Origin: Escherichia phage HEMP5
Reading direction: 5' to 3' (one strand)
Sequence record: OR424388.1
Length of the DNA stretch: 64,000 nt
The first letter of the stretch is position 1, and every line of letters starts with the position of its first letter. Of the stretch, positions 53,497 through 56,052 are shown in pieces. Position numbers and translations under genes: made by a program. Below the pieces are notes generated by a model. The model ran no database searches. It was given only the letters and a program-made list of their open reading frames with translations, and was not told where the DNA came from.

Positions 53497-54012
53497 TTAA
53501 AGCAAATTAAACATTTTAACGGTAGGCAAAACAATTTCTTCTTCTATATAAGAGTATTTAACACTCTCAACTACACGCAAAAAATCATAATCATAATACT
53601 CAGAAGCATTACCTAAAATATTAATAAGTCCTTCAAGCACTTTATTACCATTCACAAAGAATAAGTCAAATACACGTTCTTCATCTTCTTCAGATTTATT
53701 ACCAAGATCAACTTCTATGCGAAAGACCTTTTTAATGAATTCTGGATAAAGCTGGTCTGAGAACAGTCCTTCAACTAAGTATTCATAAATAAAAAGAGAT
53801 TGCTCGCTGAACAAACCATTACCACAATAGCGCTCAATTTTAGTACTAGAATATCTGCTTTTAAACTTCTTTAAAAGATACTGAAATTGTAAGATTTCAT
53901 GCTCTTCTACGCCAAACAGTGTTTTGGTTTTATAGTTGTCACCATCATTTTCCCAGGTAGTGACATCAATTACGTAGCCCTGCGGAATTGTAGTACCTAA
54001 ACAAATATTCAT
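53497..54012 (-). CDS. Hypothetical acidic protein (171 aa)
   Basis: ORF track. Confidence 0.78.
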   Translation of the reverse strand: MNICLGTTIPQGYVIDVTTWENDGDNYKTKTLFGVEEHEILQFQYLLKKFKSRYSSTKIERYCGNGLFSEQSLFIYEYLVEGLFSDQLYPEFIKKVFRIEVDLGNKSEEDEERVFDLFFVNGNKVLEGLINILGNASEYYDYDFLRVVESVKYSYIEEEIVLPTVKMFNLL

Positions 54013-54015
54013 TTT

Positions 54016-54306
54016 TCACCACGCTGCGTTAATGTAAGTATATTTAATACATTCAAGACCCAAAGGATTCTTGAAAATATCATATTCAAGAGGACCTTTT
54101 TCTGTTTCAATAAAGAAATCAAAATTTACTGTATTAAATTTACGGTCTTCCTTCACTAATTTAACTTGTGAAGATGAACGGTCAATGTAAACCTTTTCAA
54201 CTTCAAAACATGTTAAAATGCCATAATCATCAATCAAGGCTTTAGCTGCTTCTTGATCATATTTATATCCATTTTCAATGGATGATACTTTAGCATAAAG
54301 AATCAT
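54016..54306 (-). CDS. Hypothetical protein (96 aa)
   Basis: ORF track 54016..54312 begins at a TTG. ATG at 54306. Confidence 0.72.
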   Translation of the reverse strand: MILYAKVSSIENGYKYDQEAAKALIDDYGILTCFEVEKVYIDRSSSQVKLVKEDRKFNTVNFDFFIETEKGPLEYDIFKNPLGLECIKYTYINAAW

Positions 54307-54308
54307 TA

Positions 54309-54710
54309 TCAACCTTCATCAACAACAGTATGCGTATTGGCATTTACGATTTGCCACCAATCAAAGCGATTAGAACCATACATCGGTTTGTTTTCATTTT
54401 CTTTGATAATGTCACGGAGTTCATCTTCAGAGAATGCTTTAGCGATTAAATCGGTATACCCACCACGTGGATAATAATTATCACCTGCAAACAAAAGGAA
54501 ATTTACCTTCCCGGAAGGAACATACGCTTCCTTAGGATACTTGTTTCCTGCGTGGTCAACCACTTCAATATAACGGTAAGGAATATCGGTTCTTTCAACC
54601 CATTGCCATGCCGCTGCAGGGGAATCGAAAGCATCTACACCTAAACGATTATCTTCATCTTTAGACGGATTATTTTCGTAATCCGCATATACATAATATT
54701 CAACGTTCAT
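54309..54710 (-). CDS. Hypothetical protein (133 aa)
   Basis: ORF track. ATG overlaps the upstream stop (TAATG-type). Confidence 0.78.
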   Translation of the reverse strand: MNVEYYVYADYENNPSKDEDNRLGVDAFDSPAAAWQWVERTDIPYRYIEVVDHAGNKYPKEAYVPSGKVNFLLFAGDNYYPRGGYTDLIAKAFSEDELRDIIKENENKPMYGSNRFDWWQIVNANTHTVVDEG

Positions 54711-54895
54711 TATTCACCTTTAGAAATTTTATCCATAACGATAGCAATTAAACCAATTAAAAATGCTACTACAAGTGAAAAAACATTTTCTGCCGTAGTC
54801 AATAATCCGCATATAAATCCAACAAACATTGAAAAACTGAAAGCGGAAGCAGAAATTGCAATAGCAACATTTCGAATTAATTCACAGCGTTTCAT
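54710..54895 (-). CDS. Small membrane protein (61 aa)
   Basis: ORF track 54710..55036, whose N-terminus reads through the promoter. The ATG at 54895 after GAGGAGAATAAA gives MKRCELIRNVAIAISASAFSFSMFVGFICGLL... Confidence 0.68.
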   Translation of the reverse strand: MKRCELIRNVAIAISASAFSFSMFVGFICGLLTTAENVFSLVVAFLIGLIAIVMDKISKGE

Positions 54896-54923
54896 TTTAT
54901 TCTCCTCAGTAGTTGATAGGGTA

Positions 54924-54953
54924 ATAGTATCACTACCCCATCTAAAAGTAAAT
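54924..54953 (-). promoter_or_regulatory. T4-type early promoter
   Basis: Minus strand ATTTAC-N17-(GA)TACTATTACCCTATCAACTACTGAGGAG. Confidence 0.7.
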
Positions 54954-55187
54954 TTATTTTTTACGAAAAATTGATTTATTTTCTGCTGCCCATTTTTCAA
55001 TAACTGCAGCAGGACCAGTAACAACAATTTTATCACCGTAAACTTCTGCGGCGAGTTGACCGAAATTATCTAATGCATCACGAAGAACTCCATGAGGCAT
55101 TTCACCCATTTTATCTTTCTTGCCGGTGTAAATAAACTCAACTTTTGCATCAGAAGATTCAGCGATAAATTCTTTGAAAGTTTTCAT
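54954..55187 (-). CDS. Internal head protein candidate (77 aa)
   Basis: ORF track 54954..55199. The ATG at 55187 gives the capsid-targeting sequence MKTFKEFIAE followed by SSDAK. Confidence 0.72.
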   Translation of the reverse strand: MKTFKEFIAESSDAKVEFIYTGKKDKMGEMPHGVLRDALDNFGQLAAEVYGDKIVVTGPAAVIEKWAAENKSIFRKK

Positions 55188-55224
55188 TTTAGTTTCCATT
55201 CGATTGTTTTGTTTTGATAGGGTA

Positions 55225-55254
55225 ATAGTATCACAACTAAAACCCTATGTAAAC
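55225..55254 (-). promoter_or_regulatory. T4-type early promoter
   Basis: Minus strand TTTCACAAAGTTGTTTACA-N17-(GA)TACTATTACCCTATC. Confidence 0.75.
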
Positions 55255-55266
55255 AACTTTGTGAAA

Positions 55267-55524
55267 TTATTTTAAATCTTCTAATCGTTTCTTCATCTTA
55301 GAACCATTTTTAGCAATTTCTCCTGCATCGGAGCATAATGCTAAAAGTGCTTTAACTTTAGTTTGGTCTCCTTTAAAAGATGAAGGATCGACTGCAGCAG
55401 CAAGTTCTTTAATACGAGAGAAAAGACGCTCAGCTTCAGCTAAAGCCATTCCAAGCTTTACTTCCATACCGTGAGAAGATTCAGTGATAGTAGTTTTTGT
55501 AGCAAACTCTTTGAAAGTTTTCAT
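55267..55524 (-). CDS. Internal head protein candidate (85 aa), paralog of 47222-47503
   Basis: ORF track. N-terminus MKTFKEFATKTTITE followed by SSHG. The body aligns by eye with the 93-aa ORF next to gene e (KLG.AL.EAE.L..RI.ELA...EIAKNGS.MK.RLE). Confidence 0.72.
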   Translation of the reverse strand: MKTFKEFATKTTITESSHGMEVKLGMALAEAERLFSRIKELAAAVDPSSFKGDQTKVKALLALCSDAGEIAKNGSKMKKRLEDLK

Positions 55525-55554
55525 TTTATTTTCCTAATTAATTTTGATGAGATA

Positions 55555-55584
55555 ATAGTATCACTATCTCATCAGCATGTAAAC
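55555..55584 (-). promoter_or_regulatory. T4-type early promoter
   Basis: Minus strand TTTCACAAAGTTGTTTACA-N17-(GA)TACTATTATCTCATC. The upstream 32 nt are identical to those of the promoter at 55225-55254. Confidence 0.75.
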
Positions 55585-55596
55585 AACTTTGTGAAA

Positions 55597-56052
55597 TTAT
55601 TTTAAATCATCTGCCCAATCGAGTTTAAGAGGCTCTTTGTATTCACGATCTAATACGACCGGAATTTGTACATCACCGCTAAATGATAAGGGCCCAACAT
55701 TATAAGACAATGTTATATGCGGTGTGTAATCATCAAAATCATGTGTAGCACCTAGTGCCCGCGCATACATGTGTCGACAGCGCAGATATTCAGAATCTAG
55801 CACAAGTACAAGAGTCGATCCATCTTGTGTTTTCCATACTTCTAAATGTCCAGAAGAAGCTACTTCAAAACTTCCGCTTGATGGAACATACGGAACATTT
55901 ACTCTTGAATAACATATGGTCGAATGAATTTTTTCTCTAGGAACTGGATTAGGAACACGTAAAGAGCGCTGGAGTTCTTCCAGCGCATCAAGTGTTAATT
56001 CTGAAAACTTAGCTGCTACATAAAGACCCGTTGAAAAGTCTTTAAATTCCAT
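55597..56052 (-). CDS. 57B: 57B, 2H-phosphoesterase (Acb1, anti-CBASS cyclic-nucleotide nuclease)
   Basis: 151 aa. Two H-x-T/S-x motifs (KIHSTICYS and TPHITLSYN). Lies immediately upstream of 57A as in T4. Confidence 0.88.

Follow-up and report, generated by a model that had tools for sequence, protein, structure and literature searches.

A polymorphic T6-type ipI locus encoding the internal proteins Ip5 and Ip6 in Escherichia phage HEMP5

In the 64,000-nt stretch of the Escherichia phage HEMP5 that was analysed (OR424388.1; hereafter, the window), six minus-strand ORFs of 171, 96, 133, 61, 77 and 85 aa are all present where a first-pass annotation had placed them (Table 1). We identify the region as a Tequatrovirus ipI locus of the classical polymorphic type, in its T6/PST/Bas37 configuration and with the addition of an RB32-type 171-aa ORF. 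The genes follow the order 57B (Acb1), ip5, ip6, tRNA.4, tRNA.3 and tRNA.2, and then the 171-aa ORF. The order from 57B to tRNA.2 was also found in T6, Bas37 (phage KarlGJung, MZ501089) and SHFML-26, the latter being the best match to the 2.3-kb query (98.6%); coverage of this query reaches at least 80% in 52 records. In T6, PST and Bas37 the arrangement 57B, ip5 (ipV), ip6 (ipVI), tRNA.4 has promoter-bearing spacers of 72-79 nt as well, although T6 and Bas37 do not have the 171-aa ORF that HEMP5 carries between tRNA.2 and the tRNA cluster. The 57B of the window is 100% identical to that of T4. In HEMP5 the tRNA-Gln is replaced by an HNH endonuclease gene, which is shared at this site with Bas37 (201 identical residues in a 205-column alignment). 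We found no RNA families by Rfam across positions 53400-56200 and no intrinsic terminators within the locus.

Table 1. Genes, repeats and promoters of the ipI locus and the Ip5 paralogue in the window
Feature	Position	Strand	Remarks
Gene 57B, Acb1 anti-CBASS phosphodiesterase	55597..56052	-	Upstream border, conserved; Pfam Acb1 E = 2.6e-60
Repeat copy 1, ip5 early promoter	55542..55612	-	Spans last codons and stop of 57B (..DDLK*)
ip5 promoter	-35 TTTACA 55578-55583; TG-extended -10 TACTAT 55555-55560	-	Promoter scan
ip5, 85-aa internal head protein Ip5	55267..55524	-	Leader MKTFKEFATKTTITE, resembling the T4 IPI leader
Repeat copy 2, ip6 early promoter	55212..55282	-	Spans last codons and stop of ip5 (..EDLK*)
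ip6 promoter	-35 55248-55253; -10 55225-55230	-	
ip6, 77-aa internal protein Ip6	54954..55187	-	CTS MKTFKEFIAE; phrog_8111, E = 2e-49
Repeat copy 3, early promoter of the tRNA.4 unit	54911..54981	-	61% identical copy
tRNA.4-unit promoter	-35 TTTACT 54947-54952; -10 54924-54929	-	-35 lies 1-2 nt past the ip6 stop codon
tRNA.4 homologue, 61-aa small hydrophobic protein	54710..54895	-	100% identical to T4 trna.4; phrog_1692
tRNA.3 homologue, 133 aa, acidic	54309..54710	-	64% identical to T4 trna.3; phrog_1411
tRNA.2 homologue, 96 aa	54016..54306	-	97% identical to T4 trna.2; phrog_2023
171-aa ORF, acidic	53497..54012	-	96.5% identical to RB32ORF135c; phrog_2290
93-aa Ip5 paralogue, between ipIII and lysozyme gene e (second IP locus)	47222..47503	-	phrog_3499

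Ip5 and Ip6 are both encoded at the polymorphic internal protein (IP) locus between 57B and tRNA.4, one of two such loci, the other lying beside e/ipIII. Among 40 loci surveyed, this interval holds from 0 to 5 ORFs with a capsid-targeting sequence (CTS), and these ORFs fall into 24 sequence families. The core of the earlier reading, a hyperplastic ipI-type locus with alternative CTS proteins, is thus retained, while the four downstream ORFs cannot be taken as novel replacements of ipI and the CTS proteins, regarded there as unnamed alternatives, are the already named Ip5 and Ip6.

The ORFs of 171, 96, 133 and 61 aa had been described as standing in place of the T4 ipI, but T4 itself has trna.2, trna.3 and trna.4 (95, 136 and 61 aa) between tRNA-Gln and ipI, and relative to T4 only the 171-aa ORF is extra. 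This ORF is absent from T4, T6 and Bas37, and present in RB32 (ORF135c) and SHFML-26. The 61-aa product is hydrophobic, as previously noted (GRAVY +1.22, two hydrophobic stretches), and the tRNA.3 homologue shares 97% identity with bas37_0258. The four genes run head to tail with a 1-nt overlap or gaps of 2-3 nt, and for this reason we read tRNA.4 to the 171-aa ORF as a single unit that follows the third promoter; three promoters serve the six ORFs, rather than one for each as had been proposed. They are a conserved early unit, separate from the replacement of internal proteins. We found no function for tRNA.2, tRNA.3 and tRNA.4 in the literature. It could be argued that the four genes themselves belong to the variable anti-defence repertoire, since they are small, early and non-essential-looking genes beside Acb1 and the internal proteins, with a tRNA.3 that varies (64% identity to T4) and a 171-aa ORF that comes and goes among close relatives. 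We regard this as unlikely: tRNA.4 and tRNA.2 share 100% and 97% identity with their T4 counterparts and are present in the majority of the surveyed loci, none of the four has a CTS or a match in Pfam, PADLOC or PDB (the 171-aa ORF included), and bas37_0257 to bas37_0259 have no reported phenotype in the HIDEN-SEQ preprint (bioRxiv 10.1101/2025.11.20.689424).

Three related early promoters had also been pointed out, and they are indeed contained in a 71-nt repeat found three times, with copies 2 and 3 being 82% and 61% identical. Each copy holds a promoter of the T4 early type, and the exact 12-mer GTGATACTATTA occurs at these three sites only in the 64-kb window. Copy 1 contains a 10-bp inverted repeat around the -10 box (TGATGAGATA at 55565-55574 and TATCTCATCA at 55545-55554), with a predicted hairpin of -15.4 kcal/mol. 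The corresponding arms are ATAGGGT (55242-55248) and ACCCTAT (55217-55223) in copy 2, and GATGGGGTA (54934-54942) and TACCCTATC (54915-54923), with one G-T pair, in copy 3. The -10 boxes of the cassette promoters are therefore bracketed by covarying hairpins, whose hybrid arms resemble crossover scars.

Repeated early-promoter blocks beside variable ORFs in a hyperplastic region resemble the PeSL (promoter-early stem-loop) shuffling cassettes of T4-like phages (Arbiol 2010; Comeau 2014, PMC4122927), and the promoters found here match the PeSL consensus TTTACW-N17-TAYWAT (PMC4122927). In PeSLs, however, the stem-loop immediately precedes the promoter (PMC4122927). In the HEMP5 locus the inverted repeat surrounds the -10 box instead, and the stop codon abuts the -35 box, leaving no space for a stem-loop ahead of it. 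We have rejected the canonical PeSL reading on account of this different position. The cassettes are probably swapped between phages through recombination inside the repeated promoter blocks.

In T4, the fourth and seventh residues of the CTS are aromatic, the gp21 protease cleaves at L/I-x-E, and ten CTS residues suffice for packaging (PMC9026906). The 77-aa and 85-aa ORFs bear such a leader, in agreement with the first-pass annotation: they start with MKTFKEFIAE and MKTFKEFATKTTITE, sharing MKTFKEF (CTS form MKT(Y/F)xEF..), with both aromatic residues in place and an I-x-E site, which is IAE10 in Ip6 and ITE15 in Ip5, the latter matching ITE19 of T4 IPI. Following the T4 paradigm, Ip5 and Ip6 would be synthesized from their own sigma-70-type early promoters, brought by the N-terminal CTS into the prohead core, cut by gp21 after IAE10 and ITE15, and delivered to the host with the DNA as mature proteins of about 7.5 kDa. 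Packaging, cleavage and injection are thus predicted from the sequences. No late promoter (TATAAATA) was found upstream of ip5 or ip6, so the supply at the prohead stage would depend on early synthesis or read-through. The early type of the upstream promoters could also suggest that Ip5 and Ip6 are ordinary cytoplasmic anti-defence proteins made after injection, with a CTS-like N-terminus that is only a relic and no capsid delivery; the knockout phenotype described below for Bas37 would not distinguish an injected protein from a newly made one. We consider this very improbable. The CTS is the sole part conserved across the 24 otherwise unrelated families, which argues that selection acts on packaging, the ten residues mentioned above are enough for it in T4, and the best answer to a restriction enzyme that cuts incoming DNA is an inhibitor made beforehand and injected along with the DNA, of which IPI is a demonstrated example.

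T4 IPI is the nearest known counterpart, with the same locus, the same CTS logic, a comparable size (76 aa in the mature IPI*) and a leader that likewise ends in ITE in the case of Ip5. Each of the T4 proteins Ip1, Ip2 and Ip3 acts as the inhibitor of a different GmrSD, the GmrSDs being type IV restriction enzymes (PMC12373910). The mature Ip5 and Ip6 gave no BLASTP alignment with T4 IPI* or with other IP families, and hhalign probabilities were below 4%; membership in the IPI*/GmrSD-inhibitor family was ruled out, as the mature domains have no detectable homology to T4 IPI*. No matches were found for any of the six ORFs in Pfam and PADLOC, and a PDB sequence search with Ip5, Ip6, tRNA.2, tRNA.3 and the 171-aa ORF gave no significant match. 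The predicted folds of the two proteins are generic (a ferredoxin-like plait and a helical bundle) and uninformative on the target.

Ip6 has a predicted mature form of 67 aa (pI 8.0) and an AlphaFold2 model (pLDDT 80) with a beta-alpha-beta-beta-alpha-beta fold. It shares 97% identity with the PST ipVI and 91% with that of T6, occurs in 246 phage records and forms 11 clusters at 90% identity in large protein databases, the named ones being all from T-even-type phages. By sequence, bas37_0260 is its orthologue, with 71 of 77 residues identical (92%), the same locus and the same CTS type; of the six substitutions, two affect the CTS and the other four, V49D among them, the mature protein. Deletion of bas37_0260 renders Bas37 specifically sensitive to McrBC, according to the HIDEN-SEQ preprint of 2025, in which the name Ip6 is not used (bioRxiv 10.1101/2025.11.20.689424). 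From this result on a 92%-identical orthologue, Ip6 would keep McrBC, a type IV restriction enzyme, from attacking the DNA as it enters the cell; this reported target differs from the GmrSD of T4 IPI, Ip2 and Ip3, and protection against McrBC is a candidate role for the Ip6 of HEMP5. The window also encodes beta-alpha-gt (98% identical to that of T6) and alpha-gt. With this T2/T6-type pair, some of the hmC stays unglucosylated and hence accessible to McrBC, so that an anti-McrBC Ip6 would fit this genome.

Ip5 is 100% identical to the Ip5 of RB15, RB32, PST and Bas37. It belongs to phrog_3499, aligns over its full length with the named Ip5, and has homologues with at least 80% identity in 268 phage records. 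In large protein databases it forms 5 clusters at 90% identity, the named ones again being all from T-even-type phages, and a profile search recovered just 4 representatives among 1.84 billion proteins. The first-pass annotation had considered the 85-aa protein a paralogue of the 93-aa protein of the second IP locus, and this relationship is clear (47.6% identity over 84 aa, E = 4e-23, one shared PHROG family). The 93-aa protein carries SILNE in its CTS region, and 238 phage records hold a copy with at least 80% identity. The two paralogues rarely occur together: of the 496 phage records holding either, at most 12 hold both.

We found no function for Ip5 in the literature, and bas37_0261, which corresponds to Ip5, has no reported phenotype in the same preprint (bioRxiv 10.1101/2025.11.20.689424). 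This lack of a phenotype, together with a basic mature protein (70 aa, predicted pI 9.2), could indicate that Ip5, and possibly Ip6, plays a mainly structural or charge-balancing role in the prohead core and the packaged DNA, rather than acting on any specific anti-defence target, as internal proteins have been described as basic, with lysines touching DNA phosphates, and head-assembly defects are seen in IPIII and triple-IP mutants. Such a role seems to us improbable, given the hypervariable position, where unrelated mature domains are swapped in and out and an arms race fits better, the specific McrBC phenotype of the Ip6 orthologue, and the nuclease targets now known for all three T4 internal proteins. 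Most likely, Ip5 and its 93-aa paralogue inhibit a modification-dependent nuclease other than the known targets. A more specific scenario, which we put forward tentatively and rate somewhat short of even, is that both enter with the DNA to inhibit a defence nuclease not yet paired with a phage protein, distinct from the GmrSD variants of Ip1-3 and the McrBC of Ip6, and represent two alleles of one function at two loci, which would explain their infrequent co-occurrence; such cassettes would be moved through crossovers at the -10 hairpins.

Taken jointly, we think it highly probable that this is a T6-type ipI locus whose Ip5 and Ip6 are packaged, trimmed by gp21 and injected, with Ip6 acting against McrBC and the cassettes recombining at the promoter repeats. 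The proposal that the two CTS proteins are candidate injected anti-defence proteins with different targets is supported as a reading of the sequences, yet it is already the published view. Indeed, earlier publications already cover the locus and the names of its proteins, as well as the hypotheses of shuffling and anti-restriction, with IP locus polymorphism and the idea about host range both dating to Repoila 1994 (as cited in PMC4122927 and PMC12373910). For the annotation of T-even phages, the 77-aa ORF, for which the labels 'internal virion protein' and 'hypothetical protein' are in wide use, can now be connected with Ip6 and with bas37_0260, the reported anti-McrBC gene, and Ip5, a very common T-even internal protein by the number of its records, stands out as the one with no reported target.

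The window is part of a Tequatrovirus (T4-like) genome, with all genes of interest on the minus strand (see the table). The first-pass annotation had described two small ORFs beside 57B as carrying the N-terminal capsid-targeting sequence (CTS) of T4 internal proteins (IPs) with an L/I-x-E site, and had proposed aligning them to known IP families. Both leaders were confirmed, and the alignment identifies the 85-aa product as Ip5 and the 77-aa product as Ip6. Ip5 is 100% identical to RB32 Ip5, PST ipV and bas37_0261 of phage Bas37, and 98.8% identical to the T2 protein (phrog_3499, "internal head protein"). 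Ip6 shows 97.4% identity with the PST and GiZh "ipVI", 92% with the "ip6"-annotated proteins of fHoEco02 and fFiEco06, and 90.9% with T6 (phrog_8111, "internal virion protein").

Features of the HEMP5 window discussed in the text
Feature	Coordinates	Strand	Remarks
gene 1	56294-57019	-	
57A	56052-56294	-	
57B	55597-56052	-	Pfam: anti-CBASS enzyme Acb1, E = 2.6e-60
ip5, 85-aa ORF	55267-55524	-	
ip6, 77-aa ORF	54954-55187	-	
tRNA.4, 61 aa	54710-54895	-	first of four contiguous ORFs
tRNA.3, 133 aa	54309-54710	-	
tRNA.2, 96 aa	54016-54306	-	
ORF171, 171 aa	53497-54012	-	
HNH endonuclease ORF, 202/210 aa	52789-53421	-	phrog_14736, E = 6e-124
Endonuclease ORF, 223 aa	51554-52225	-	segB position
tRNA genes			six after HNH ORF; seventh, tRNA-Arg (51517-51591), beyond 223-aa endonuclease ORF
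93-aa paralogue of Ip5	47222-47503	-	between ipIII and e
54-aa gene 61.1 homologue	2475-2639	-	phrog_1823
Two glucosyltransferase genes	7154-8002 and 19385-20587	-	
71-nt repeat, copy 1	55542-55612		
71-nt repeat, copy 2	55212-55282		82% identical
71-nt repeat, copy 3	54911-54981		61% identical
Inverted repeats at the three promoters	54915-54942, 55217-55248, 55545-55574		-10 box as loop

Work of the Black laboratory, summarized in PMC9026906, shows that the first 10 residues of IPIII are enough for packaging, that CTS positions 4 and 7 serve targeting while 8 and 10 serve processing, and that the prohead protease gp21 cleaves after L/I-x-E. Ip6 starts with a canonical 10-residue CTS, MKTFKEFIAE, followed by SS. 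The Ip5 leader, MKTFKEFATKTTITE, also followed by SS, parallels the longer T4 IPI leader (MKTFKEFTSTTTPVSTITE, then AT), whose cleavage leaves the 76-residue IPI*. The predicted mature proteins have 67 aa and a pI of 8.0 (Ip6) and 70 aa and a pI of 9.2 (Ip5). From these motifs, we infer that both are packaged through the CTS and processed by gp21. In AlphaFold2 models built on shallow alignments, Ip6 is predicted as a beta-alpha-beta-beta-alpha-beta plait (pLDDT 80) and Ip5 as three helices (pLDDT 82).

Megablast matched the 2.3-kb locus region in 726 phage records, 52 of them with a single match spanning at least 80% of it, the best being Shigella phage SHFML-26 (98.6%). The order 57B-ip5-ip6-tRNA.4 is common to T6, PST, Bas37/KarlGJung and SHFML-26, whereas RB32 has ip5-ip9-ip7 and T4 has ipI at the position of ip5-ip6. 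In a HYPERPLASTICITY survey of relatives (36 IMG/VR loci anchored on 57B, plus T4, RB32 and SHFML-26), 0 to 5 CTS-bearing ORFs per genome were found between 57B and tRNA.4, and together with the window they form 24 sequence families. Profile-profile comparison of mature Ip5 and Ip6 with the other CTS families revealed no similarity (hhalign probabilities <4%), which agrees with IPs having only the leader in common (PMC12373910). Both families are very narrow: a database of 5.8 billion proteins contains 11 clusters of Ip6 and 5 of Ip5, the named ones all from T-even-type phages, and an Ip5 profile search of 1.84 billion proteins gave 4 representatives.

Three near-identical early promoters had also been noticed at the locus. 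The repeat search recovered a 71-nt family with three copies, each carrying one of them. The promoter scan found TTTACA-17-TACTAT with an upstream TG in copies 1 and 2; copy 3 has TTTACT-17-TACTAT. The upstream half (TTTCACAAAGTTGTTTACA) is simply the consensus of T4 early promoters in general, found six times in the window when up to 3 mismatches are allowed, where chance would give 0.09. In exact form, the 12-mer GTGATACTATTA is confined to the three locus promoters within the window, which makes these more similar to one another than to the other early promoters. No intrinsic terminator or late promoter was found within the locus, nor any Rfam family between 53400 and 56200.

All three promoters contain an inverted repeat with the -10 box as loop, with the arms TGATGAGATA / TATCTCATCA, ATAGGGT / ACCCTAT and GATGGGGTA / TACCCTATC and predicted hairpins of -15 to -16 kcal/mol. 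The described promoter-early stem-loop (PeSL) cassette of T4-like phages has its stem-loop upstream of the promoter (PMC4122927), whereas here the inverted repeat brackets the -10 box. Of the 33 unique promoter-like sites at the ipI loci of relatives (L001-L041), 14 carry a perfect inverted repeat of at least 6 bp over the -10 box (shuffles: mean 2.5, maximum 7). By the same test, none of ten GTTTAC-type early promoter-like sites elsewhere in the window has one. The T4 copies that we fetched also have them upstream of ipI, ipII and ipIII (10, 14 and 8 bp). Arms vary between cassettes, with nine distinct arm sequences at the relatives' sites, and in some hybrid sites the 5' and 3' arms are of different types, as in RB32 ip7 (AAATAGGGTA, GTGATACTAT and TATCTCATC in succession). 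These hybrids have the appearance of crossovers within the -10 core that the sites share, GTGATACTAT.

The endings of 57B (DDLK and stop, 55597-55612) and Ip5 (EDLK and stop, 55267-55282) lie inside copies 1 and 2, so that the recombination block takes in the coding end of the gene upstream. A crossover within the repeat would give coding ends placed in this way. Flanking 43-bp direct repeats are also mentioned in the RB32 record.

The four ORFs downstream of ip6 had been regarded as unknown ORFs replacing ipI, each behind its own early promoter, and here we disagree. T4 also has trna.2 (95 aa), trna.3 (136 aa) and trna.4 (61 aa), placed between tRNA-Gln and ipI, to which the window's products are 97%, 64% and 100% identical, and ORF171 is 96.5% identical to RB32ORF135c. 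Since T4 has three of them and RB32ORF135c matches the fourth, they are no stand-in for ipI. tRNA.4 and tRNA.3 share one base (TAATG), and gaps of 2 nt (tRNA.3/tRNA.2) and 3 nt (tRNA.2/ORF171) are too small for promoters, so that we read the four as a single unit served by the third promoter. Pfam, PADLOC and PDB gave no relative for any of them; the tRNA.4 product is strongly hydrophobic.

On the tRNA side, ARAGORN and Rfam found 7 tRNAs in the window, none of them tRNA-Gln, of which only the first 8 nt are left (about 53403-53410). The HNH ORF (region 52783-53421) has taken the place of the remainder, as far as 1 nt from tRNA-Leu. This replacement is common to Bas37 and the window, while T4, T6, RB32 and SHFML-26 keep tRNA-Gln. 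The 223-aa ORF matches phrog_15137 "endonuclease" and, weakly, Pfam Phage_endo_I; it is not obviously a GIY-YIG SegB, and its last ~38 nt overlap tRNA-Arg.

At the second IP locus, adjoining gene e, the 93-aa paralogue is almost mutually exclusive with Ip5 in sequenced phages, and the window holds both. With 496 records containing either one and 508 matching places, no more than 12 records can hold both. The 286-nt gap between this paralogue and ipIII (46936-47221) has two GTTTAC-type early promoter-like sites (starts 47219 and 46995), and the CTS scan found no ipII homologue in the window. The homologue of T4 gene 61.1 also begins with a leader that resembles a CTS and has an I-x-E site, MKTYKEFIKE, and its tail is highly charged (KKKKEESKEKEE). 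In contrast to the IPs, this protein is conserved over a wide range of phages, with 1,396 phage records that include T4-like phages of Klebsiella, Acinetobacter and Aeromonas; the literature search found no mention of gp61.1.

The first-pass observation is thus largely real and its interpretation right in outline, but earlier work already covers the locus and the proteins as well as the ideas of recombination and anti-restriction. The polymorphic IP locus and its suggested part in host range date back to Repoila et al. 1994, as cited in PMC4122927 and PMC12373910. Each of T4 Ip1, Ip2 and Ip3 inhibits a different GmrSD, and the remaining proteins of the two Ip loci are predicted to target further variants (PMC12373910). 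For one of the two proteins here, Ip6, a target is already reported. In the HIDEN-SEQ preprint (bioRxiv 10.1101/2025.11.20.689424), the ipI locus of Bas37 holds "two different genes", of which bas37_0260 is required on E. coli K-12 BW25113 and dispensable on a strain without McrA, McrBC and Mrr; the bas37_0260 deletion mutant is specifically McrBC-sensitive. Bas37 is phage KarlGJung (MZ501089; BASEL supplement), where bas37_0260 is the 77-aa ORF adjoining tRNA.4. It shares 71 of 77 residues with the window's Ip6, which by this identity and its position is the orthologue of the reported anti-McrBC factor. No phenotype is reported for Ip5 (bas37_0261).

The window also has alpha-gt (Pfam AGT) and, at the T4 beta-gt position, a T2/T6-type beta-glucosyl-HMC-alpha-glucosyltransferase 98% identical to that of T6. 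Under the T2/T6 glucosylation pattern some of the hmC carries no glucose, which makes the DNA a substrate of McrBC. The glucosyltransferase pair fits a T6-like DNA modification pattern and, plausibly, a need for an McrBC inhibitor.
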